From an uncultured Thermococci archaeon (lineage in GTDB: Archaea > Methanobacteriota_B > Thermococci > Thermococcales > CAYNOZ01), in NCBI GenBank assembly GCA_964398955.1, contig CAYNOZ010000004.1:1-40883 (forward strand): a stretch of DNA of 40,883 nt. Reading direction: 5' to 3'. Positions 2,989-13,041 of the stretch are shown here, piece after piece. The translations under genes were made by a program, and so were the position numbers. Numbering within the stretch: position 1 is the stretch's first letter; each line of letters opens with the position of its first letter. The notes beneath the pieces are model-generated. The model made no database searches. It had not been told where the DNA came from and saw nothing but the letters and a program-made list of their open reading frames with translations.

Positions 2989-3108
2989 TTTCTCACCATC
3001 GGATAAACTGAGACCAATATTTTTAAACCTTTCGTTTCAATGTATATCTAAGAAAAAAATCCACAAAAAGATTTAAAATAAAAATTTTAAAGACAAAAGA
3101 GTTTTTCA

Positions 3109-3786
3109 TTAACTTCCGACTGGTTCAGCTAAAAACTTTATATCAAATGCAAATTTATCTCCTTGATATTCGTTCTTAGTATCGCTTAAAAGATGATAGC
3201 CCTGTCTAATTTCCATTCTATGACCAGGTCTTAACTCTCCAAGATCTATCCATCCCCCGTTAATTTTACCAACCGTCATTGAATCCCCTTGAACAAATTC
3301 AATACCAGATCTAATTAATTCATTTGAACCATCATATACATTGTAATTCAGGCTATAATCAGTAACATTATGTAAATCATCTACGGGTCCACCAATTTCC
3401 TCTTCCGCAACTTGCTCAGGTTCATTATAAATTCCAGTTCCCCAATCAGTAACATTCACCATCTTATAGACCCTAGCTGTTTCAGTTCCATTATTATGCA
3501 CGGATATTTCAATATATCCTGTCCCATATCCAGGTAACATATAGCTTAGTGAAGTTGTTCCATTCCAAACAATCATATCCCCTACAGTTATGTTAACTGT
3601 TCCGGTATCAACCGAATTTGAATCTGCTAATGCATAAGTGTAGATCTTAAGATTTTCTTCATCAATAGATAACTCTGCCCCAACCCATTCATCATTAGAA
3701 AAGTAGTAAAAGGAACTAAAACCAACCAATAGTAATACCAATATCGCTACTACAGTTCTCTTCAAATTCAAACTTTTAAATCTCAT
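3109..3786 (-). CDS. TasA/CalY-like exported subunit with N-terminal hydrophobic anchor (paralogue D)
   Basis: Clear paralogue of 7641-8354: shares VYKMVNVTDWG, EPE, DDLHNVTDYSL, LGEL.PG...Q.YH and NEYQGD.F.FD..F.A. Signal region ends in YYFSND. Confidence 0.7.
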   Translation of the reverse strand: MRFKSLNLKRTVVAILVLLLVGFSSFYYFSNDEWVGAELSIDEENLKIYTYALADSNSVDTGTVNITVGDMIVWNGTTSLSYMLPGYGTGYIEISVHNNGTETARVYKMVNVTDWGTGIYNEPEQVAEEEIGGPVDDLHNVTDYSLNYNVYDGSNELIRSGIEFVQGDSMTVGKINGGWIDLGELRPGHRMEIRQGYHLLSDTKNEYQGDKFAFDIKFLAEPVGS

Positions 3787-3825
3787 TCTAAATCCTCCAA
3801 TTTAATTAATTTCTTCATTTCTTTT

Positions 3826-5388
3826 TTACTCATTATTTGAAGTTAGGATAACGTTATTGCTTCCAAAGTACCCGATATTTTCTTTAGTAATCCCAATTAT
3901 TTTTCCTAAATTCTTTCCATCTTCAAAACCAGTCCCTTCTATTGGGAATCGTAGTATCGCATCATTAATTCCATCCTTATTTATATCTTCAAAGAAAATG
4001 TCAGAACTAATTGTAAGAACTCCTCCATCATCATTTAAAACTCCTGGAGTACCTAGTTTAACTCTGTCAATATCTATTTTACTTGAATTAAAATTCGAAG
4101 ATCCGTATATTCCTACTTCAACTTCGCCATCAAGATATAAATCCTCATCAAATGGGTTAATAATACAATCTATTTTTACAGAATCTTTAACATCTGCAGA
4201 ACTTAAATCTAAATTTCTTTCTTCACTACTTGATAGATTAGGTTTATTGCTACTTTCATCATCACCAGGTTCGTTACCATTACTATTGATAGGATTATTA
4301 CTGTCTTGAGAACTATTTATCCTTATAGTGCCATTAGAATTCTCTATATCATAGAAATAGTTTTCCTCAAATTCAACGGATTCATTATATGGATTGTTGA
4401 TTTGTCTAGCCATGAAAATTATCTTCAAATCTAGTATCGCATCTTGAAATTCATTCATCTCTGATATATTCAAATGATAATCTTGTGAAACATCCATCCA
4501 CTCTCCACTATCTAGTACCCCTAAATCCATCCAAGTACCTTTCACGTCAGAAACTGTTACGTTTTGATTGTATATGACATTCTCATCGTTATTAATTTCG
4601 GTTATTAAGCTGTAATCAATATTATTTCCTAATTCATCTCCTTGAATTATCTCTCCACTAGTTACATAGAAAGTATGATTATAAGTCCCATTCCCATTAT
4701 CTGTTACATTATCAAATCTAACTGTAAAACCTATCGAATCAGTTAACTCAGTACCAATACTATTAAACGTTGAATTAGCTATTTTTGTAGCTGCCTTTGT
4801 AAAAACAGTCACATTCTCACATTTATCATCTAAAATTATAGTAAAGGAATCTTTTTCTACAAAACCATCTTCTCCTAACCCATCTCCATTTGCTTCAAAT
4901 TTAACAGAGGATAAGTTTTTGAAATGCATATTGGTTGGAGGCAATTTACCGGCTGGAACTTCAACATTATAACTTGCTTGATATGATCCGTCCCCCCAAA
5001 TTTCTCTATCCACTTGATATAAATCACCGTCTTCAGGATTTATAACGGCTAAATCATTATTACAAGTAAAATCGAATACAATATAGCTTAATGCGTGAGG
5101 TACTTTCTGTATTATGGACCCATTAAGATTAATTTTCTTATATATTCTAGATGGATTCGTTCCTTCATTAAATATGCTAACATTAGCCCAACCCACCTCT
5201 TCTGATGAAATATCAATTTCAAAGTATTTATTCCAAGGATTCTGATCGTTAATACTTATATCTATTGTACCCGCCTCTACATTAGCACTAGAATACTCTG
5301 AATCATTATAAATTGCTGTTGTACCTAATCCGAAAACCATTGAAATTAATCCTATCACCATAATACTTATTAATAATTTTTTTCTCAT
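3826..5388 (-). CDS. SipW-dependent TasA/CalY-like protein with inserted domain and C-terminal DxNxDG-containing domain (paralogue C)
   Basis: SipW-class signal LGTTA/IYNDSE..AGTIDISI. The TasA-like core is split by a ~150-aa insert, followed by an Asn/Ser-rich linker and a C-terminal EDINKDGINDAILRF motif. Confidence 0.75.
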   Translation of the reverse strand: MRKKLLISIMVIGLISMVFGLGTTAIYNDSEYSSANVEAGTIDISINDQNPWNKYFEIDISSEEVGWANVSIFNEGTNPSRIYKKINLNGSIIQKVPHALSYIVFDFTCNNDLAVINPEDGDLYQVDREIWGDGSYQASYNVEVPAGKLPPTNMHFKNLSSVKFEANGDGLGEDGFVEKDSFTIILDDKCENVTVFTKAATKIANSTFNSIGTELTDSIGFTVRFDNVTDNGNGTYNHTFYVTSGEIIQGDELGNNIDYSLITEINNDENVIYNQNVTVSDVKGTWMDLGVLDSGEWMDVSQDYHLNISEMNEFQDAILDLKIIFMARQINNPYNESVEFEENYFYDIENSNGTIRINSSQDSNNPINSNGNEPGDDESSNKPNLSSSEERNLDLSSADVKDSVKIDCIINPFDEDLYLDGEVEVGIYGSSNFNSSKIDIDRVKLGTPGVLNDDGGVLTISSDIFFEDINKDGINDAILRFPIEGTGFEDGKNLGKIIGITKENIGYFGSNNVILTSNNE

Positions 5389-5451
5389 TCCTCACACCCC
5401 ATTTCATCCTTTCAAGAAATATAAAGTAAAATATAAGTTCAATTTTAATTA

Positions 5452-5973
5452 TTAAGATTTTACTTCTTTTTTCTCCTTATTACTTCTTTTAATTACTTTA
5501 TTTATTTCCATAACCACTAAAATTATTGAAGGAATAATTACTAAACCAATAAAACCATAGAAAGTACCAGCATACAGAATGATATGTCCCAACATAGGGA
5601 TTCTGAACATCATCTCCCCCATCAATTCCTCCTCAAACACTGGACTTAAATCCGGACCTTCTGTAGCATCACCCTTAGTAATAAGCGATATTACGTTCCC
5701 ATTACTCATTCTTCTTTCAATAACTCTATGAGTGATCTTCATACTACCTCTATCATATGTAACAATATCTCCAACCTCTACATCATCTATATCAACTTCC
5801 TTCACTATTATTACATCGCCAGGTTTGATATTAGGCTCCATACTACTACCCTTAACGATATAAGAATTATTACCACCAATTAACGGAGGAAAACCATAAA
5901 CTACAAATGGCATAACAAATAAGATAACAACTGCGATAGATAACAATTTTAACTTCGATATGTTAAAGTTCAT
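5452..5973 (-). CDS. sipW: Signal peptidase I, SipW/Sec11 (S26B) type
   Basis: GSSMEP (catalytic Ser), GDIVTY, ITHRVI (catalytic His), TKGD and RIPMLG; N- and C-terminal TM helices; sits among SipW-class substrates. Confidence 0.88.
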   Translation of the reverse strand: MNFNISKLKLLSIAVVILFVMPFVVYGFPPLIGGNNSYIVKGSSMEPNIKPGDVIIVKEVDIDDVEVGDIVTYDRGSMKITHRVIERRMSNGNVISLITKGDATEGPDLSPVFEEELMGEMMFRIPMLGHIILYAGTFYGFIGLVIIPSIILVVMEINKVIKRSNKEKKEVKS

Positions 5974-6061
5974 TTTTTCTCACATCTTTAATTCAATTAA
6001 TTCAACATTAAAAAAAGAAAAAAGGAAATATGAATATCTATTTTCAATTTAAATACTTATT

Positions 6062-7501
6062 CTATTGTTGCTCTTCATCTGGTTCTATTACTGAGTCTGG
6101 ATCTGGGCATATTACTCCAACAGCCATGTCACCATATCCAACAGTATGTGGAGTCATTCCAAAGTATGGTTCATATGCAACTGCATCTCCGGTGTCTCTA
6201 TCGACTACATATATGTTACCTGAAGTTTCGAATCCGTTGGTGGATCCTACTAATGCTCCAGTACCTGCCTCTCTAATAGCTATTCCTGTGAAGTAGTCTG
6301 GTGCCGGTGATGGTTCGGTTGCTAAAGTTGCAGTCATTGTATCTAAGTCTATGTTGTAGAAAGCGTCATCAGCGTTTGTGTACAGTATTAGGTCTCCGTA
6401 GGCGTCAAATATTAAGTCAGCTCCTTGAACATCAAGAGTTCCACCTTCAACTATACTTACAGTTCCTAAAACGCTTCCAGATGGAGAATTTGGATCAATT
6501 GTTACTATTTCATCGGTATCGTCACTTGCTCCGTATATAAGACCGTCTTCTGGGTTTACTGCTCCTAGAACTATTTGTTTTTCTGCTACAGGAGTTCCTG
6601 AGTAATCTACTCCGTTGTCAAATGTTTCTGTTACTAGATCGTAGGTTCCTAATTGGTCCGTGTTTTTGTCCCATAGGTATAGTTCTTTTCCATCGTTTGA
6701 TGATGATAGTGAGTCTACGTTATCCCAAGCTCCTGAATCTACTTCAAACATTTTGTTTAAGTATGCTCTTTGTTCTGAGTCGTCGAGAACTACTTCAAAT
6801 ATTGTGGTTCCATCTTCTGCTCCTTCTCCACCTGGTCCGCTGTCACTTAGGTATATTGTTTCTACTCCGCTGCAGTCTCCACATTCTTCTGGGTCGTTGA
6901 CTTGTTGTGCGTAGAAGTGCATGTCAAATGTCATGTTGTCTCCTTGCGCCCAGTTAGTTGTTTCATTAAACATATGGTATCTCTGAGTTACTACAGCATA
7001 TCCGCCATCCCCTGGTATTACTCCTAATTTGTACTCTTCTTCGTCAACACCAAGTAGTAAATGTCCCATAAGAATATCTTTTTGTTCTACTAATGTTTCA
7101 TTTGCGTCATATATTTCAACGTGATTCCAGTATTCAATTGCTGCACTAATTTTGTTTATTTCATTTTCTGGATCTTCTGCTAGTTCTGATTCTGGGTGGA
7201 GTCCTCCTCCGTACCCTGTGATGTTAATCATTTTACATACAATAGCATCGTTTGTTCCAACGTTCTTGATTGTTACATTTGTCCATTGTTGATACATTTC
7301 AGATGGTTTCATATCCTCTAATGTGAATGAACTCATCCAAGGATTTTCATTATCGATTGCTATGTCTATTGTTCCTGCTTGTAGTGTGTTGTCTTCTGCT
7401 GACTCTACATCACTGAAAAAAGCTAATGTTCCGTACCCTGCCATTGCTGAAATCAGTCCTATTATCATTAGACTTGCTAAGAATCCTTTGTTATAATTCA
7501 T
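6062..7501 (-). CDS. SipW-dependent TasA/CalY-like protein with C-terminal beta-propeller-like domain (paralogue B, putative adhesin)
   Basis: YGTLA/FFSDVESAEDNTLQAGTIDI signal and N-terminal strand; TasA-like core; CGDC linker; repeated blade-like segments (SSNDGKELYLWD, VNPEDGLIYG, FDAYGDLIL). ATG 7501 follows a GAGGTGA SD. Confidence 0.75.
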   Translation of the reverse strand: MNYNKGFLASLMIIGLISAMAGYGTLAFFSDVESAEDNTLQAGTIDIAIDNENPWMSSFTLEDMKPSEMYQQWTNVTIKNVGTNDAIVCKMINITGYGGGLHPESELAEDPENEINKISAAIEYWNHVEIYDANETLVEQKDILMGHLLLGVDEEEYKLGVIPGDGGYAVVTQRYHMFNETTNWAQGDNMTFDMHFYAQQVNDPEECGDCSGVETIYLSDSGPGGEGAEDGTTIFEVVLDDSEQRAYLNKMFEVDSGAWDNVDSLSSSNDGKELYLWDKNTDQLGTYDLVTETFDNGVDYSGTPVAEKQIVLGAVNPEDGLIYGASDDTDEIVTIDPNSPSGSVLGTVSIVEGGTLDVQGADLIFDAYGDLILYTNADDAFYNIDLDTMTATLATEPSPAPDYFTGIAIREAGTGALVGSTNGFETSGNIYVVDRDTGDAVAYEPYFGMTPHTVGYGDMAVGVICPDPDSVIEPDEEQQ

Positions 7502-7571
7502 TTTCTTTTCACCTCTTATATTATTAAACACTAATATCTCCTAAGATCCTGTTAAACAGAAAAGGAGGCAT

Positions 7572-7601
7572 AAAAAAGGAATATTAATTTATTAATACTC
7601 C
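7572..7601 (-). terminator. Hairpin plus U-tract terminator/attenuator after the first fibre-subunit gene
   Basis: Minus strand GGAGTATTAA-TAAA-TTAATATTCC followed by TTTTTT; 10-bp stem with one G.U pair. Confidence 0.6.
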
Positions 7602-7640
7602 TATAATACTATAAAAACATTGTTAATTCTATTATATTCT

Positions 7641-8354
7641 CTAATTTTGTACTTCTTGTTCTAAGACAGGTTCAAATTCGGTTATGGTTGAGTCATCGTT
7701 TAGTTGTAGTGCCATAAACATTACATCAAAGCTGAATTCGTCTCCTTGGTATTCGTTTCCTGCTTCGGCGATTATGTGGTAGTCTTGGTTAATGACCATG
7801 ACTGCTCCTGGTGCTAGTTCTCCAAAGAACATCCAAGTATTTGCGATGTCACTAACTAAGGTTCCATCTTCTTGTTCATGTACTATCCAACTGTCAGAAA
7901 CATTGCCTGCTTCGAATTCTGATTCGTTTGCGTATATTTTTACTTCTAAGCTGTAGTCAGTTACGTTATGTATATCGTCTATTCTTCCTTCCATTTCTGC
8001 TTCCCATTCTGGTTCTGATGAATACATTTCTTCAGTCTCTGGGTCCGTGAATCTTTCTAGTCCTGGTCCCCAGTCTACAACGTCTACCATTTTGAATATT
8101 TTTGCTGGGTTTGTTCCAACGTTTCTGATTGTTACGTTAATGTATTCTGTTCTTTCACATGGTTTCATGTCTAAGAATTCGTAGGTTGCGTTCCATGGGT
8201 TTTCCCCGTCTACGGATATGTCTATTGTTCCTGCTTGAAGTGTGTTGTCTTCTGCTGATTCTATGTCACTGAAGTATGCGTAGGTTCCTCCTCCTACTAC
8301 TAGTCCTATTAATCCGATTATTAATAGGCTTGATAAAATTTGCTTGGTTATCAT
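7641..8354 (-). CDS. SipW-dependent TasA/CalY (camelysin-like) family protein, putative major fibre subunit (paralogue A)
   Basis: Canonical SipW-cognate signal GGGTYA/YFSD followed by NTLQAGTIDISV and N.GTNP; GGAGGT SD; several N-x-T/S sequons. Confidence 0.82.
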   Translation of the reverse strand: MITKQILSSLLIIGLIGLVVGGGTYAYFSDIESAEDNTLQAGTIDISVDGENPWNATYEFLDMKPCERTEYINVTIRNVGTNPAKIFKMVDVVDWGPGLERFTDPETEEMYSSEPEWEAEMEGRIDDIHNVTDYSLEVKIYANESEFEAGNVSDSWIVHEQEDGTLVSDIANTWMFFGELAPGAVMVINQDYHIIAEAGNEYQGDEFSFDVMFMALQLNDDSTITEFEPVLEQEVQN

Positions 8355-8815
8355 TTCTTTTAACCTCCTTATAGTTAAGAATCATATATTAGAATATAAA
8401 TACCGACTACACTATACATATTATTAGTTTAGAGTAGTTAAAATATTTTTATAACAGATTTTAGAACATATGATTTTCACATATGAGTACAAGATATGTA
8501 AATTACATATATAAAAGTCAGAGTATTAACCATATAAAAAAAATAAGTTTTTAATGTAATAAAAATAGCTACAAAATACCCTATTAAAAGTTAACTAGTG
8601 TTAAAATATGTATTATAAACAATAAACCGATGAAAAAAACGTTATAATAAATAAACTTTCAAAGCATAATATAACTACAACTCTAAAATTGAATTAGGAC
8701 ATATGCAATTATATTAAAGCATAAAATATGTTTGAAACACTTTTAGAGTTTATAGTAAACATCTAATAAGGTATTTAAACTTAAAATTAGATAATATTCA
8801 GATAGGTAGATTTTA

Positions 8816-9025
8816 ATGAAGGAAATAGAAAAAACACTTCGATCATTAAAAGATAAAAAATGGCATAATTTGAATAACATAAAAGAGTCTTCAAATTTGT
8901 CTCAAGATAAAATAAATTTAATTATAAAATTTCTAGAAAAACAGAAATTTGCTAAGTTAAATTCTAAAAAAGATCAAATTAAAATCACAACTCTAGGAAT
9001 GGATTATATAAATTTGCCGACTTAA
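8816..9025 (+). CDS. Small winged-helix DNA-binding protein
   Basis: 69 aa; helix-turn-helix then wing (IIKFLEKQKFAKL...IKITTLGMDY); divergent from the fibre operon. Confidence 0.6.
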   Translation: MKEIEKTLRSLKDKKWHNLNNIKESSNLSQDKINLIIKFLEKQKFAKLNSKKDQIKITTLGMDYINLPT

Positions 9026-9052
9026 TATTATATAATTTAACTTGAATTATTT

Positions 9053-9307
9053 TTATTCAGCTCTTCCTGTTATTGATTCTACTTTTTCTAGTTCTTCCAA
9101 TAACTCTCTGCCTTTTTCTGTTATTTTGTATTCATTTCCTGGGTTTCCACATTTTTCTATGTACCCATTTTCTCTAAGAAATTTAAAGTATTTTTTAAAT
9201 GTTCTCCAGTCGAGAAATGCCATTTGCATTATCTTTGTTTTTCGGCTTCGGTTTTTGTTCTCAAGTCCTTTCAAAATATCTAAGAAAATTTCCCATCGAC
9301 CTCTCAT
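9053..9307 (-). CDS. Winged helix-turn-helix transcriptional regulator (HTH_45-like archaeal family)
   Basis: R.R.EI..DIL, KTKIM...LDW.TF.KY...L...GYI and YKITEKGRELL pattern. Confidence 0.8.
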   Translation of the reverse strand: MRGRWEIFLDILKGLENKNRSRKTKIMQMAFLDWRTFKKYFKFLRENGYIEKCGNPGNEYKITEKGRELLEELEKVESITGRAE

Positions 9308-9646
9308 ATCTAAACCCCTTAACTAAATCTTATTAATTCCTTTATATAAATGAACTTAATAAAAGTTGATTTATATTTGTTCATCATTATTTTTTAAAAT
9401 ATATTAATCTTATCTATTTAATATTAATATTCTGATATATTTATAACTTACGTAAATCTTTTAGCTATTAACAATCTATTTAGAGGAAGATATAAGTAAT
9501 AGTTTCGTAAATTGTCAAAACATTGCTAAAAAGATAAGCTAACAAATCCAAGAAACTTATCTTTTTATCATCTATCTCATCTCATTAAATAAGATTTAAT
9601 TTACTGCAAACATTAGTTTTAAATACCATTATTCTTTTCTCTTTAT

Positions 9647-10363
9647 ATGTCATTAGATTTATTTGATATTTTAGGTGAAGCTTTTGAGAAAGTTATTAGT
9701 AGAACTGGATTGATTTTTATTGGTTTACTACTGGTTTTAAATTTCTTGAGTAGGATTCCAGCTGAAGGTTTTGCAAATTTAATGGTTAATAATAATTTTA
9801 ACAGTATTTCTTCTATTTTTAACTTAATTTTAGCTCCTACTTTTTTATTTATAAGTTTTCTAATATTTGTTGGTACTATTATTATTAGTATTGCAGCTGT
9901 TAGAAATTTTGTAAGTGATGAAGATAAGAGAATCCGTAAAGAGTTCTTCACTAGAAATATGTTTTTTGCTAGTGTTAATTCATTTATTGGAGCTATTTTT
10001 TACGGAATTATAATTGGTGTTGGTTTTATATTGTTTATTATTCCAGGTATTTTCCTTTTGGTTAGTTTGTTCGCTTGGGAAATTTTCGTCGTGGTGGAAG
10101 ATCAGAATTTTCTTGAAGCTGGTAAGAGTAGTTGGAATTTGACTGAAGGTAATAGGCTTCCTCTTGCGGGTTTGTTATTATTGGTTACGATGATTGGTAT
10201 TATTGTAAATATTCCTGTTCAGTTATTTGACAGAGGTATTTCTGTTTTGATCGTGGAACCTATTACTGGGAGTATTTTGACTGTGTTTGTTTTTGCTGTT
10301 TCTGCTGTGGCTTATAATCGTCTTTCAGATTTAGAGGATAAAGAAGAAGTGTTGGATGGCTAA
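9647..10363 (+). CDS. Multi-pass membrane protein of unknown function
   Basis: About 6 TM segments; GFILFIIPGIFL...VVEDQNFLEAGKSSWNLTEGN motif typical of an uncharacterised membrane family. Confidence 0.75.
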   Translation: MSLDLFDILGEAFEKVISRTGLIFIGLLLVLNFLSRIPAEGFANLMVNNNFNSISSIFNLILAPTFLFISFLIFVGTIIISIAAVRNFVSDEDKRIRKEFFTRNMFFASVNSFIGAIFYGIIIGVGFILFIIPGIFLLVSLFAWEIFVVVEDQNFLEAGKSSWNLTEGNRLPLAGLLLLVTMIGIIVNIPVQLFDRGISVLIVEPITGSILTVFVFAVSAVAYNRLSDLEDKEEVLDG

Positions 10364-10366
10364 TTT

Positions 10367-11638
10367 CTAGAATGGGTCTTTGAAGTTTTCTCCTGGGTAT
10401 TTTGCTATCTCTCCTAATTGTTCTTCTATTCTTAGTAATCTGTTATATTTGACATTTCTGTCTGTTCTTGCTGGTGCTCCTGTTTTTATTTGTCCTGAGT
10501 TTAGTCCTACTGATAGGTCGGCTATTGTTGTGTCTTCTGTTTCTCCTGATCTGTGGGATACCACTACGCTGTATCCTGATCTGAAAGCTTTTTGTGCTGC
10601 ATCTATTGCTTCGCTTATTGTTCCTATTTGATTTACTTTTAGCAGCAATGAGTTTGCTGCGTTCATTTCTATTCCTTTTTCTAGTCTTTCAACATTTGTT
10701 ACGAATAGGTCGTCTCCCACTATCTGTATGTCTAATTCTTCTGTTATTTGTTTGAATCCGTCGAATTCTTCTTCGTGGAATGGGTCCTCTATTGATATTA
10801 GGTTGTATTTATCCACTAATTCCTTGTAGAGTTCTATTAGTTCTTCTTTTTCATATTCTTTTTCGCCGATTGGGTAGGTTTCATGTCTTTCGTTGTATAT
10901 TTCGCTTGCTGCTGCGTCTATTGCAAAGTTCATATCTTCTTCGTATCCTAGTTCTTCTATTGATTCTAGTAGCATTTCAAATGGTTCTTGTACTTCCTTC
11001 ATTGGGGGAGCGTATCCGCCTTCATCTCCTACGTTTATCGCTCCTTTTCCGTACTCGTTTGCTAATGATTTTTTTAGTTCATGGTACACTTCTGCTACCA
11101 TTCTTATTCCTTCAGAGAATGATTCAGCACCAGTTGGCATTACCATGAATTCTTGAAATTCTAAATCGTTTCCAGCGTGTTCTCCTCCATTAATCACATT
11201 CGCCATTGGTACTGGTAGGACGTAGGAGTTTGAGGATATGTAACTGTATAGTGGTATTCCTAGTAGGTCTGCAGCTGCTTTGCTAGCAGCCATTGAAACT
11301 CCAAGTATTGAATTTGCTCCTAATTCTAATTTATTTTTGGTGCCGTCCAGGTCTAGCATTAAATTATCTATTTTTCTTTGATCTGTTATGTCATACCCTA
11401 TTAATTCTGGAGCTATTTTTTGATTTACTATTTCCACTGCTTTTTTCACTCCTTTTCCATTGTATCTGTCTTCTTCATCTCGTAGTTCGATGGCTTCATT
11501 TTCTCCAGTAGAAGCTCCACTAGGTACAGTTGCTCTACCATAACCATTATCAGTCCAAATTTCTACTTCAACAGTGGGATTTCCTCTGGAATCAAGTACT
11601 TCCCTACCTTTAACATCAATAATTTGATACCGATTCAT
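10367..11638 (-). CDS. eno: Enolase (phosphopyruvate hydratase)
   Basis: DSRGNPTVEVE, VPSGASTG, GDEGG, VGDDLFVTN, SHRSGETED and QIKTG motifs. Confidence 0.98.
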   Translation of the reverse strand: MNRYQIIDVKGREVLDSRGNPTVEVEIWTDNGYGRATVPSGASTGENEAIELRDEEDRYNGKGVKKAVEIVNQKIAPELIGYDITDQRKIDNLMLDLDGTKNKLELGANSILGVSMAASKAAADLLGIPLYSYISSNSYVLPVPMANVINGGEHAGNDLEFQEFMVMPTGAESFSEGIRMVAEVYHELKKSLANEYGKGAINVGDEGGYAPPMKEVQEPFEMLLESIEELGYEEDMNFAIDAAASEIYNERHETYPIGEKEYEKEELIELYKELVDKYNLISIEDPFHEEEFDGFKQITEELDIQIVGDDLFVTNVERLEKGIEMNAANSLLLKVNQIGTISEAIDAAQKAFRSGYSVVVSHRSGETEDTTIADLSVGLNSGQIKTGAPARTDRNVKYNRLLRIEEQLGEIAKYPGENFKDPF

Positions 11639-11940
11639 ATTCACACATTACCAATTATGGTTTTCATGGTTTTTAATTTTTATCAATAAAAATTAAGGAT
11701 AATAGCACATAAAATAATTAATAATAACTTTATAATGCTTTATTATTAAAATAAAATAATAAAAACTCATAATTAATAAAATTCTTTAAAAATTTTCATT
11801 AACTCGGATTAATTATAATTACATGCAAATTCCTTAGAACTCTTAACAATACGAATTTAAAATATATTAAATTTGAAATATATTAAGTTTTAAAGTTTAG
11901 AATTATAAATTTTTAAGAAAAGAGTTATGTAATATTATTT

Positions 11941-13041
11941 TTATTTATTTTGTTCAATTTTGTTGATTCCTCTTCCGTCGAGCTGGTAGTATTCTTCTTC
12001 GGCGCATGGTATGCATAGGATTTTTCCGTTTTGTTTAACTGATTTTGGTGCCATAATTTGTTCTCCGCATTCCTCACAAGTTTTGTCTTCATATATTGGT
12101 GCATAATCCGGTGAATTGATTTCTACTTCTTTAATTTCGAATATTTGTTCTATTGGTACTTTGATTAAGTCAAATGCTTCTTGGCTCCATCTTTTGTTTA
12201 AGGTTTTTTCTTCTTCTTCTTTGGTTCCTTCTCTTTTCTCTATGACTTTTTCGAAGAGTTTCTGTGTTTCTTGTTCTCTTTTTTCTTGTACTTTTTCTTC
12301 TTTTAGTTTTAATCTTATCCCTTTTCCGTTTCTTTTGGTTATGGTTACTGCTGTTTTTCCATAATCTTTGTAGATTAACGCGTTGTTGCCGAATGTACAT
12401 CCTGTTGAGTACTGTATTCCATCGCTGAAGCAGCTATTTGTTTCTACTATTGCTAATAAATCTTCCATGCCTTTAGAATTAGTTTGGAGCTCTCTTATAG
12501 CGTATGAACCAGCCTTAACTCCTAAACTTAAGTAGGGACAGAAATGACCATGTAATTCCCCTGATTTGAATAATAATTTCTCTAAGTTTCTTTTCTTAAT
12601 TAATTGGTTTATCTCTTTCCTAGGATTTTCTTTCAAATCATGTTTCTTTATATGATCAATTTCATCCATTGGAGCAGCATAAGGTTTAATATCAAGTACA
12701 GGAGTACCATCTACCGCATCAAGTCCATAAACTTTTAATTCGTTATCATTTCTCTCTAATAATTTAACAGTTGTGAGACCAATTGAATTAGGTCTTCTAG
12801 GGCTTCTAGAAGCAAAAACTCCTCTGACTCTTCCATGACGACGTTTTCCTTTCAGGTCATAACCTTCCATCTTATCTAAGTAAAAAAGGATCTGTAAATA
12901 GTCATTATCCTCTACACCATTGAGTCCTTCGCTGAACTCTGGACTAACGATTATAGTGCTCTCATGTTCCTTCATCTCATCTGGACCAACAGGTTCCTTA
13001 TACCTACTTTTAACTTCTCCAATTGAATTAAAATCAACCAT
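11941..13041 (-). CDS. TrmO/TsaA-like SAM-binding domain fused to FmdE-like domain with C-terminal Zn finger
   Basis: N-terminal GVFASRSPRRPNSIGL and DAVDGTPVLDIKPY; C-terminal HGHFCP, ETNSCFSDGIQYSTGCTFGN and CEECGE...CIPC. Confidence 0.85.
   Translation of the reverse strand: MVDFNSIGEVKSRYKEPVGPDEMKEHESTIIVSPEFSEGLNGVEDNDYLQILFYLDKMEGYDLKGKRRHGRVRGVFASRSPRRPNSIGLTTVKLLERNDNELKVYGLDAVDGTPVLDIKPYAAPMDEIDHIKKHDLKENPRKEINQLIKKRNLEKLLFKSGELHGHFCPYLSLGVKAGSYAIRELQTNSKGMEDLLAIVETNSCFSDGIQYSTGCTFGNNALIYKDYGKTAVTITKRNGKGIRLKLKEEKVQEKREQETQKLFEKVIEKREGTKEEEEKTLNKRWSQEAFDLIKVPIEQIFEIKEVEINSPDYAPIYEDKTCEECGEQIMAPKSVKQNGKILCIPCAEEEYYQLDGRGINKIEQNK

Follow-up and report, generated by a model that had tools for sequence, protein, structure and literature searches.

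Can five neighboring genes equip an archaeal cell with an extracellular fiber and with the enzyme that frees the fiber subunits from their signal peptides? This question is raised by a gene cluster at positions 3109-8354 of the archaeal contig CAYNOZ010000004.1, of which a stretch of 40,883 nucleotides, referred to here as the window, was analyzed. An earlier reading of the window (below, the original prediction) had described a co-oriented series of genes encoding four TasA-like proteins (A, B, C and D) and a SipW-like signal peptidase. The coordinates of the open reading frames (ORFs) bear out this arrangement: all five are located on the minus strand in the order A, B, sipW, C and D, with gaps of 39-109 nt between them.

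7641-8354, minus strand: A, 237 amino acids (aa), plain TasA-family subunit and candidate major fiber subunit
6062-7501 (ATG start) or 6062-7531 (GTG start), minus strand: B, 479 or 489 aa, TasA-family protein with a C-terminal propeller-like module of ~265 aa
5452-5973, minus strand: sipW, 173 aa, sipW-like signal peptidase I of the archaeal/endoplasmic reticulum (ER) type
3826-5388, minus strand: C, 520 aa, TasA-family core split by an insert of ~150 aa, plus a C-terminal region of ~185 aa
3109-3786, minus strand: D, 225 aa, divergent TasA paralogue and candidate membrane-tethered base subunit or nucleator

In our judgement the cluster is likely to be a SipW-dependent TasA-type extracellular fiber system, assembled by donor-strand exchange, in a member of the Methanonatronarchaeia or a close relative. 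It is a rather complete example of a known TasA-type system and no new kind of system, and its value lies in being a clean and unusually complete example. The Methanonatronarchaeia are extremely halophilic methanogens, and to our knowledge hardly anything has been learned about the structures on their cell surface. With its five-gene compactness the cluster offers a tractable test case for the assembly principle of Bacillus TasA in archaea at saturating salt, and it also suits the questions of how domain-bearing paralogues enter a fiber and of whether a paralogue with an altered N-terminus can replace TapA.

Family membership of the subunits and the peptidase

By BLASTP comparison, A, B, C and D are paralogues, far above chance. 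A is 42% identical to B (E 8e-43) and 39% identical to D (E 2e-41), and it aligns with C in two blocks (E 2e-19 and 6e-11) with the C insert between them. These split blocks, together with a single D-x-N-x-D-G loop in the C-terminal region, agree with the internal insert and the DxNxDG-type C-domain originally ascribed to C. When every six-frame ORF of 60 aa or more in the 40.9-kb window was searched with a hidden Markov model (HMM) of the family, only A-D were matched. The model was built from an alignment that includes A-D, which makes their own scores circular, and the informative outcome is therefore solely that no fifth copy was found.

The assignment of the proteins to the TasA/Peptidase_M73 family, and of the peptidase to the SipW type, held in the HMM searches. 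PF12389 (Peptidase_M73, TasA/camelysin; cutoff 22.5 bits) is passed by A (41.2 bits, E 2.1e-10), B (28.6 bits) and C (26.2 bits). TIGR04088, the model of SipW-cognate signals (cutoff 19 bits), is passed by A (44.1 bits, E 1.4e-11) and B (31.4 bits), and C with 18.0 bits falls 1 bit short of it. D has no match to either model at E<=0.1, as would be expected from the non-canonical signal attributed to it. The peptidase passes TIGR02228 (archaeal signal peptidase I) with E 3.6e-27 and 95.2 bits, the cutoff being 51.85. It aligns to the human catalytic subunit SEC11C (7p2q_A, E 1.1e-5) over the segments GSSMEP, THRV and TKGD, which we take to hold the Ser, His and Asp catalytic residues. Hydrophobic segments are located at its N- and C-terminal ends, and its gene stands between B and C.

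Columns that are invariant in A-D include N78, G80 and T81 (N.GT), G183, Q190, Y192, H193, N200, Q203, F213 and A215. The shared core motifs of the original prediction do exist, and N.GT is invariant in all four proteins, but the longer strings turned out to be approximate. LG.L..G...Q.YH should have six residues, not three, between G and Q, and B has no LG.L block. In N..QGD...D..F.A, the residues N200, Q203, F213 and A215 are invariant, but C has QDA instead of QGD. The sequence HExxH is the criterion for zinc proteases, and a camelysin-type metalloprotease was rejected by motif since HExxH is absent from all four translations. All four paralogues are very acidic (isoelectric points 4.05-4.44), which fits exported proteins of a halophile, and the number of N-x-S/T sequons is 16 in C and five each in A, B and D.

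B can be read from GTG at 7531 (489 aa) or from ATG at 7501 (479 aa), with a Shine-Dalgarno (SD)-like motif 5' of both. The ATG at 7501, giving 479 aa, is probably the start. The SD-like motif 5' of it is GAGGTG, the resulting N-terminus is parallel to those of A and C, and the 479-aa form is found in the public protein collection (P0124, 100% identity, 100% coverage).

With A as query, 224 relatives were obtained at E<=0.001 among 650 candidates scored, and PF12389 was present in 119 of the 120 A homologues among the matches listed. The top-ranking homologues that carry a name are TasA family proteins of Methanonatronarchaeum sp. AMET-Sl, with 56% identity to A, and a protein of Ca. Methanohalarchaeum thermophilum annotated as 'M73 family secreted endopeptidase', with 52% identity. 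Both hosts are Methanonatronarchaeia, in line with the halophilic anaerobic euryarchaeon proposed earlier as the source of the DNA. Full-length orthologues of B that include the propeller-like part are P0125 (82% identical) and P0126 (65%, Ca. Methanohalarchaeum).

In the phylogenetic tree, B-type proteins form a separate, long-branched clade with 100/100 support. The D pair is recovered with the same support (100/100), and the D-type is sister to the A-type clade (91/88). AMET-Sl has a plain paralogue of 247 aa, one of 392 aa with an internal insert and one of 337 aa with a C-terminal extension, and these are lineage-specific duplicates within the A-type clade (98/94). Domain-bearing versions have thus arisen more than once. 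The first 32 residues are identical in all of the AMET-Sl paralogues P0003, P0006 and P0009, and the first 54 in two of them, which suggests a recent duplication or gene conversion of the segment comprising signal and donor strand, with the later parts diverged.

Contig sizes suggest that the cluster is conserved in relatives. For A, B and D, there are orthologues that are each assigned to a contig of 18,470 nt, and a contig of 5,528 nt recurs for close homologues of the peptidase, C and D; the sizes 1,555,502 and 1,691,710 nt are also shared among orthologues. A look-up of the exact sequences gave no named member of their clusters.

Predicted fold and proposed fiber assembly

In A, a SipW-cognate signal peptide is followed by a candidate N-terminal donor strand, approximately Y27-L39. 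The AlphaFold2 model of A, calculated with a 49-row alignment, has a confident beta-rich core and a mean predicted local distance difference test (pLDDT) score of 82.7, with 143 of the 237 residues scoring at least 90. Residues 14-39, a stretch that takes in the last part of the signal peptide together with the putative donor strand, are unstructured (pLDDT <50). When the model was compared with the PDB by Foldseek, the top match was the TasA fiber subunit 8aur_A (E 7.9e-6, probability 1.00, template modeling (TM) score 0.45/0.46, 16% identity), and this was the only match at E<=0.001. Together with the match of the D model to 5of1_A described below, it agrees with the TasA-like fold that had been predicted. 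The later matches were subunits of donor-strand filaments, namely the Sulfolobus 0406 thread, the type 1 pilus rod, CS20 pili, 7ueg_A and CanA. The original prediction had also pointed to the TasA-related bundling pilus of Pyrobaculum; its pilin 7ueg_A was matched, but it is more distant than TasA (E 6e-3 versus 7.9e-6).

Among the PDB sequences, the family profile found TasA entries only (8aur_A, E 3.4e-4, and 5of1_A, E 1.5e-3, these being both of the two matches at E<=1), and A alone gave one chance-level match (E 0.099). The profile was aligned to TasA in two places: an AGTIDI-type segment that includes F39, a residue in the donor-strand interface of TasA, and the C-terminal NxYQG block. 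According to the available text of PMC9674648 and PMC10151520, mature TasA begins at residue 28, its donor strand comprises residues 28-38, F29, I32 and F39 are in the interface, and TapA gives the first strand. In the A family, F28, D30 and E32, which follow the predicted cleavage site, show a conservation of at least 90% among 49 sequences, a pattern that fits recognition by the peptidase or strand function alike. Complex prediction with mature A (residues 27-237, x3) gave scores of 0.56, 0.56 and 0.29, with 0.00, 0.40 and 0.00 for the controls, too small a margin over the best control to speak for or against binding.

The following mechanism may be proposed. A, B and C would be exported by Sec via SipW-cognate signal peptides, for which there is family-model support in A and B and borderline support in C. 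By analogy with TasA, the operon's own signal peptidase I would cut right before the [YF]FSD segment, at about A26/Y27 in A. The freed N-terminus could then act, as in TasA, as a donor beta-strand that enters the open groove in the jelly-roll of the neighboring subunit, so that a non-covalent fiber would form head to tail. A is the sole paralogue without additions, it is encoded by the first gene, and the strong GGAGG upstream of it is the strongest SD-like motif of the cluster, which makes A the natural candidate for the bulk of the fiber. B and C keep the signal, the donor strand and the core, and they could for this reason be incorporated into the A fiber or cap it. The modules displayed in this way would be the propeller-like domain of B and, in the sequon-rich C, an immunoglobulin (Ig)-like insert and a C-domain with a Ca-loop.

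The propeller-like domain that had been predicted for B finds leads in DUF6923 and DUF4394, but these are all sub-threshold. In Pfam, the C-terminal ~265 residues of B match DUF6923 with E 4.6e-4 and 20.5 bits versus a cutoff of 27. The Atlas similarity of this part to DUF4394/DUF6923 clusters is 0.87, under the 0.9 mark, and the comparison with PDB sequences gave nothing useful (one match at E 0.91). The ~150-aa insert of C matches Filamin, likewise sub-threshold (E 2.4e-4, 22.3 bits versus 26.9). The C-terminal 185 residues of C have no match to any Pfam family at E<=10 and none among PDB sequences, and in the Atlas they reach a similarity of 0.90, to unnamed clusters only.

Four cysteines are present in B, with a C-x-x-C at the junction of the TasA core and the propeller-like part and a Cys near the C-terminus (residues ~216-222 and 465-470 in the 489-aa numbering). 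Both full-length orthologues, P0125 and P0126, retain the C-x-x-C as well as the C-terminal Cys. Such cysteines are unusual in an exported protein of a strict anaerobe and could form a metal site or a disulfide.

D departs from the other paralogues at its N-terminus. The cognate motif is degenerate (YFS), and the segment that corresponds to the donor strand of A is interrupted by 20 inserted residues. Its core is intact and retains the invariant residues of the family. The AlphaFold2 model (mean pLDDT 73.3) has a helix at residues 8-29, a low-confidence hairpin at 36-51 and a core as in A, with pLDDT <50 over residues 32-59. The highest-TM Foldseek matches are monomeric TasA (5of1_A, TM 0.45/0.50, and 5of2, TM 0.44/0.51, both with probability 1.00). 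A word-based search with D returned three relatives, and when 1.84 billion representatives were searched exhaustively with HMMER, 136 matches were obtained at E<=0.001. P0122 (57% identical) is the sole match across the N-terminal insert, the rest beginning at about residue 53 of D, and the D-type is therefore a lineage-restricted derivative. As judged from the sequences, the N-terminus of D is the sole lineage-specific peculiarity of the cluster. P0216 was rejected as a D-type protein (canonical signal and a different insert), and P0223 was rejected as a relative of D (a spurious 1024-aa repeat translation).

The Foldseek list of D also holds the C-terminal domain of the Clostridium perfringens enterotoxin and domains of Bacillus thuringiensis Cry toxins (probability 0.9-1.0, TM ~0.25-0.30). 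We take these matches as a generic beta-sandwich resemblance that does not point to a toxin.

An anchor or nucleator role is proposed for D because it has no cognate cleavage motif and carries an insert in its donor strand. In what is the most speculative step of the mechanism, D would be a cell-proximal subunit tethered by its N-terminal helix, or a TapA-like nucleator that gives the first strand. Tyr or Asp at position -1 is unfavorable for signal peptidase I, and the canonical -1 residue, which is Ala in A, is Tyr in D and Asp in the orthologue P0122. It is possible, if rather unlikely, that D is instead a minor subunit that is cleaved in the usual way, or a paralogue in decay, and that its odd N-terminus has no special role. 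A signal peptidase could cut at the small residues that are found 2-3 positions before the canonical site in D (G-F-S) and P0122 (G-Y-G), so that D may be cleaved after all; the hairpin of the insert is of low confidence, and the D-type is found in just two lineages. On the other hand, the insert and the altered motif are kept between D and P0122 despite 56-57% overall identity, and the core of D is intact. The full version of the anchor proposal states that D is an uncleaved signal-anchor paralogue whose hairpin donor strand primes or ends polymerization, with A as the shaft and B and C as tip or side subunits with binding domains, and this we regard as unlikely. If true, the cluster would encode a complete cell-anchored donor-strand pilus, free of chaperone and usher, from one protein family and a signal peptidase, and would be a self-sufficient archaeal equivalent of the pili made by chaperone-usher or sortase systems.

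What the four proteins share might also be an export route and not a fiber. B, C and D would then be independent surface or secreted proteins, for example in binding, with the jelly-roll as a stalk, and at most A would form fibers. The core of B is devoid of the W..LG.L.PG block found in A, C and D, the B-type is a clade of its own on a long branch, and the core of C is split by a large insert. TIGR04088-type signals may extend beyond TasA, as the N-terminus of a Kelch protein in the archaeal locus L001 (see below) has a similar segment, yet without a TIGR04088 match at E<=0.01. This explanation is nevertheless improbable in our view. The donor-strand segment is nearly unchanged in B and C, and A and B share an identical stretch of 11 residues past the signal peptide, a conservation that is hard to account for without a partner groove; the genes are, moreover, tightly clustered and co-oriented. 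That A-D are secreted metalloproteases of the camelysin type, as the Pfam name Peptidase_M73 and the NCBI name of the Methanohalarchaeum homologues would have it, is very improbable given that HExxH is found in none of the four, that the best structural match is a TasA fiber subunit, and that TasA is treated as a structural fiber protein in the accessible parts of PMC9674648 and PMC10151520.

Several points weigh against the TasA-type fiber system that we prefer. The PF12389 matches span just the N-terminal ~50-70 residues, i.e. the signal peptide and the first strands. The fold match of A to TasA is moderate (TM 0.45, root-mean-square deviation 10 Å), and for the D model generic beta-sandwiches score close to TasA. 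The small residues upstream of the canonical site in D count here as well. The peptidase scores 85.2 bits on NF046067, the equivalog model of Bacillus SipW, which has a cutoff of 190; it is SipW-like by context and a non-orthologue by the NCBI criterion, and it could be the general Sec11-type enzyme of the host that is merely located here. For the modules of B and C no family match exceeded its threshold, and to call them adhesins, as had been done, is accordingly a guess. Adjacency of the orthologues elsewhere is deduced from equal contig sizes alone, and, as far as the available text of a preprint goes (10.64898/2026.01.04.697558), no archaeal TasA homologue of the PF12389 group has been characterized.

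Comparison with known fiber systems

The closest system, together with the sipW-calY operon, is the biofilm fiber operon tapA-sipW-tasA of Bacillus subtilis (8AUR), and the fiber proposed here would most likely be a surface or biofilm structure too. In both this operon and the present cluster a signal peptidase I of the ER/archaeal type is encoded among its substrates, the substrates have TIGR04088 signals and a PF12389 jelly-roll core, and the post-cleavage segment and the C-terminal NxYQG block are conserved. Four TasA paralogues are found here, whereas the Bacillus operon has one TasA and the unrelated Ig-fold protein TapA. Two of the subunits here carry large extra modules, and the archaeal host has no peptidoglycan wall. 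In the structural alignment, A and TasA share only 16% identity, and the peptidase scores under the cutoff of the equivalog model for Bacillus SipW. D is a TasA paralogue and not a TapA homologue, and its likeness to TapA would be a functional analogy via the altered N-terminus.

The sipW-calY1-calY2 operon of Bacillus cereus resembles the cluster in combining several TasA paralogues with the peptidase. One camelysin paralogue has been suggested to fill a TapA-like role, parallel to the proposal for D, in the available part of PMC10151520. The same part reports neither paralogues with propeller or Ig-like modules nor an interrupted donor strand for B. cereus calY, whereas both occur here.

The AbpA/AbpB system of Pyrobaculum calidifontis (7UEG) is an archaeal filament of the TasA superfamily assembled by donor-strand insertion, and in this it resembles the fiber proposed here. 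In the accessible text of PMC9245690 a role as initiator and adhesin is proposed for AbpB, the larger of the paralogues, and the ABP operon is described without a dedicated peptidase. 7ueg_A is only seventh in the list of the A model (E 6e-3, TM 0.28/0.34, 10% identity), and unlike AbpA the proteins of the cluster belong to the PF12389 group near bacterial TasA.

In archaeal loci of the AbpX/Tafi type, the gene for a fiber subunit is likewise accompanied by genes for a signal peptidase I, for paralogous minor subunits and for predicted tip proteins, and in some cases by genes for transcription factors (10.64898/2026.01.04.697558 and PMC12337348, in the parts available). These loci differ from the present cluster in belonging to other subfamilies of the TasA superfamily and, for Tafi, in Tat export, and the AbpX-associated peptidase is described with ten transmembrane helices, whereas the peptidase here has hydrophobic ends only.

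The original prediction knew of no characterized example of such an architecture in a halophilic anaerobic euryarchaeote. No experimental characterization was found, in agreement with the available text of the preprint. The novelty was, however, overstated, because a catalogue from 2022 already covered archaeal PF12389 homologues, those of Methanonatronarchaeales among them (PMC9245690, section 9, as far as available), and similar archaeal loci have been described in the preprint, which in its accessible part places archaeal TasA-like proteins of Methanobacteriota beside bacterial TasA (10.64898/2026.01.04.697558). Our literature search found no paper joining Methanonatronarchaeia with TasA and nothing specific on pili or an S-layer of Methanonatronarchaeum.

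An independent archaeal version of the same theme was encountered when genome contigs were scanned with A as the single query, a type of search that reaches close relatives only. Of 36 pattern matches one was confirmed, the locus L001 of a metagenome-assembled genome of Methanomassiliicoccaceae (7998-12609, plus strand), whose match is 26% identical to A. Four adjacent genes make up this locus: a tasA-like gene (188 aa, PF12389 69.4 bits), a sipW gene (178 aa, TIGR02228 109.4 bits), a gene for a 456-aa Kelch propeller protein with an N-terminus that resembles a cognate signal, and one for a 697-aa TasA-like/CARDB protein whose end consists of a hydrophobic segment and, after it, a long charged tail. 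Unlike in L001, where the Kelch propeller is a separate gene, the propeller-like domain is fused to a subunit in B, and the putative anchor is N-terminal in D but C-terminal in L001.

Gene neighborhood and minor observations

The genes that flank the cluster are housekeeping genes. Downstream of D are a thioredoxin-fold gene, DUF371, a pseudouridine synthase and MobB. On the other side, beyond an AT-rich spacer upstream of A, a winged-helix gene is co-oriented with A and is followed by a membrane protein gene and enolase.

8355-9052, no strand: AT-rich non-coding spacer upstream of A, ~700 nt, candidate promoter/regulatory region
8816-9025, plus strand: 69-aa ORF inside the spacer, with sub-threshold Pfam matches of helix-turn-helix (HTH) type only (E 0.05-0.09)
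9053-9307, minus strand: winged-helix protein, 84 aa, PF14947 HTH_45 (E 2.9e-22, 78.9 bits versus a cutoff of 25.5)

The GC content of positions 8001-10000, which cover the spacer, is 0.26. The winged-helix gene and the 69-aa ORF are possible regulators of the cluster, and it is uncertain whether the winged-helix gene belongs to the system. A scan for bacterial promoters and terminators gave fewer promoter-like sites than in shuffled sequences, the model not being applicable to archaeal promoters, and one terminator-like site that is irrelevant. Runs of 6-8 T, in minus-strand sense, are located 3' of the stop codons of A, B and D (7560-7600, 6005-6030 and 3040-3100, respectively). Going by their position and composition, they could be archaeal oligo-T termination signals, and the one past A might boost the A transcript over those of the downstream genes.

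Unrelated to the cluster, an unusual 366-aa chain encoded at 11941-13041 on the minus strand fuses an N-terminal TrmO domain, an FmdE domain and a zinc finger of the DksA/TraR type.

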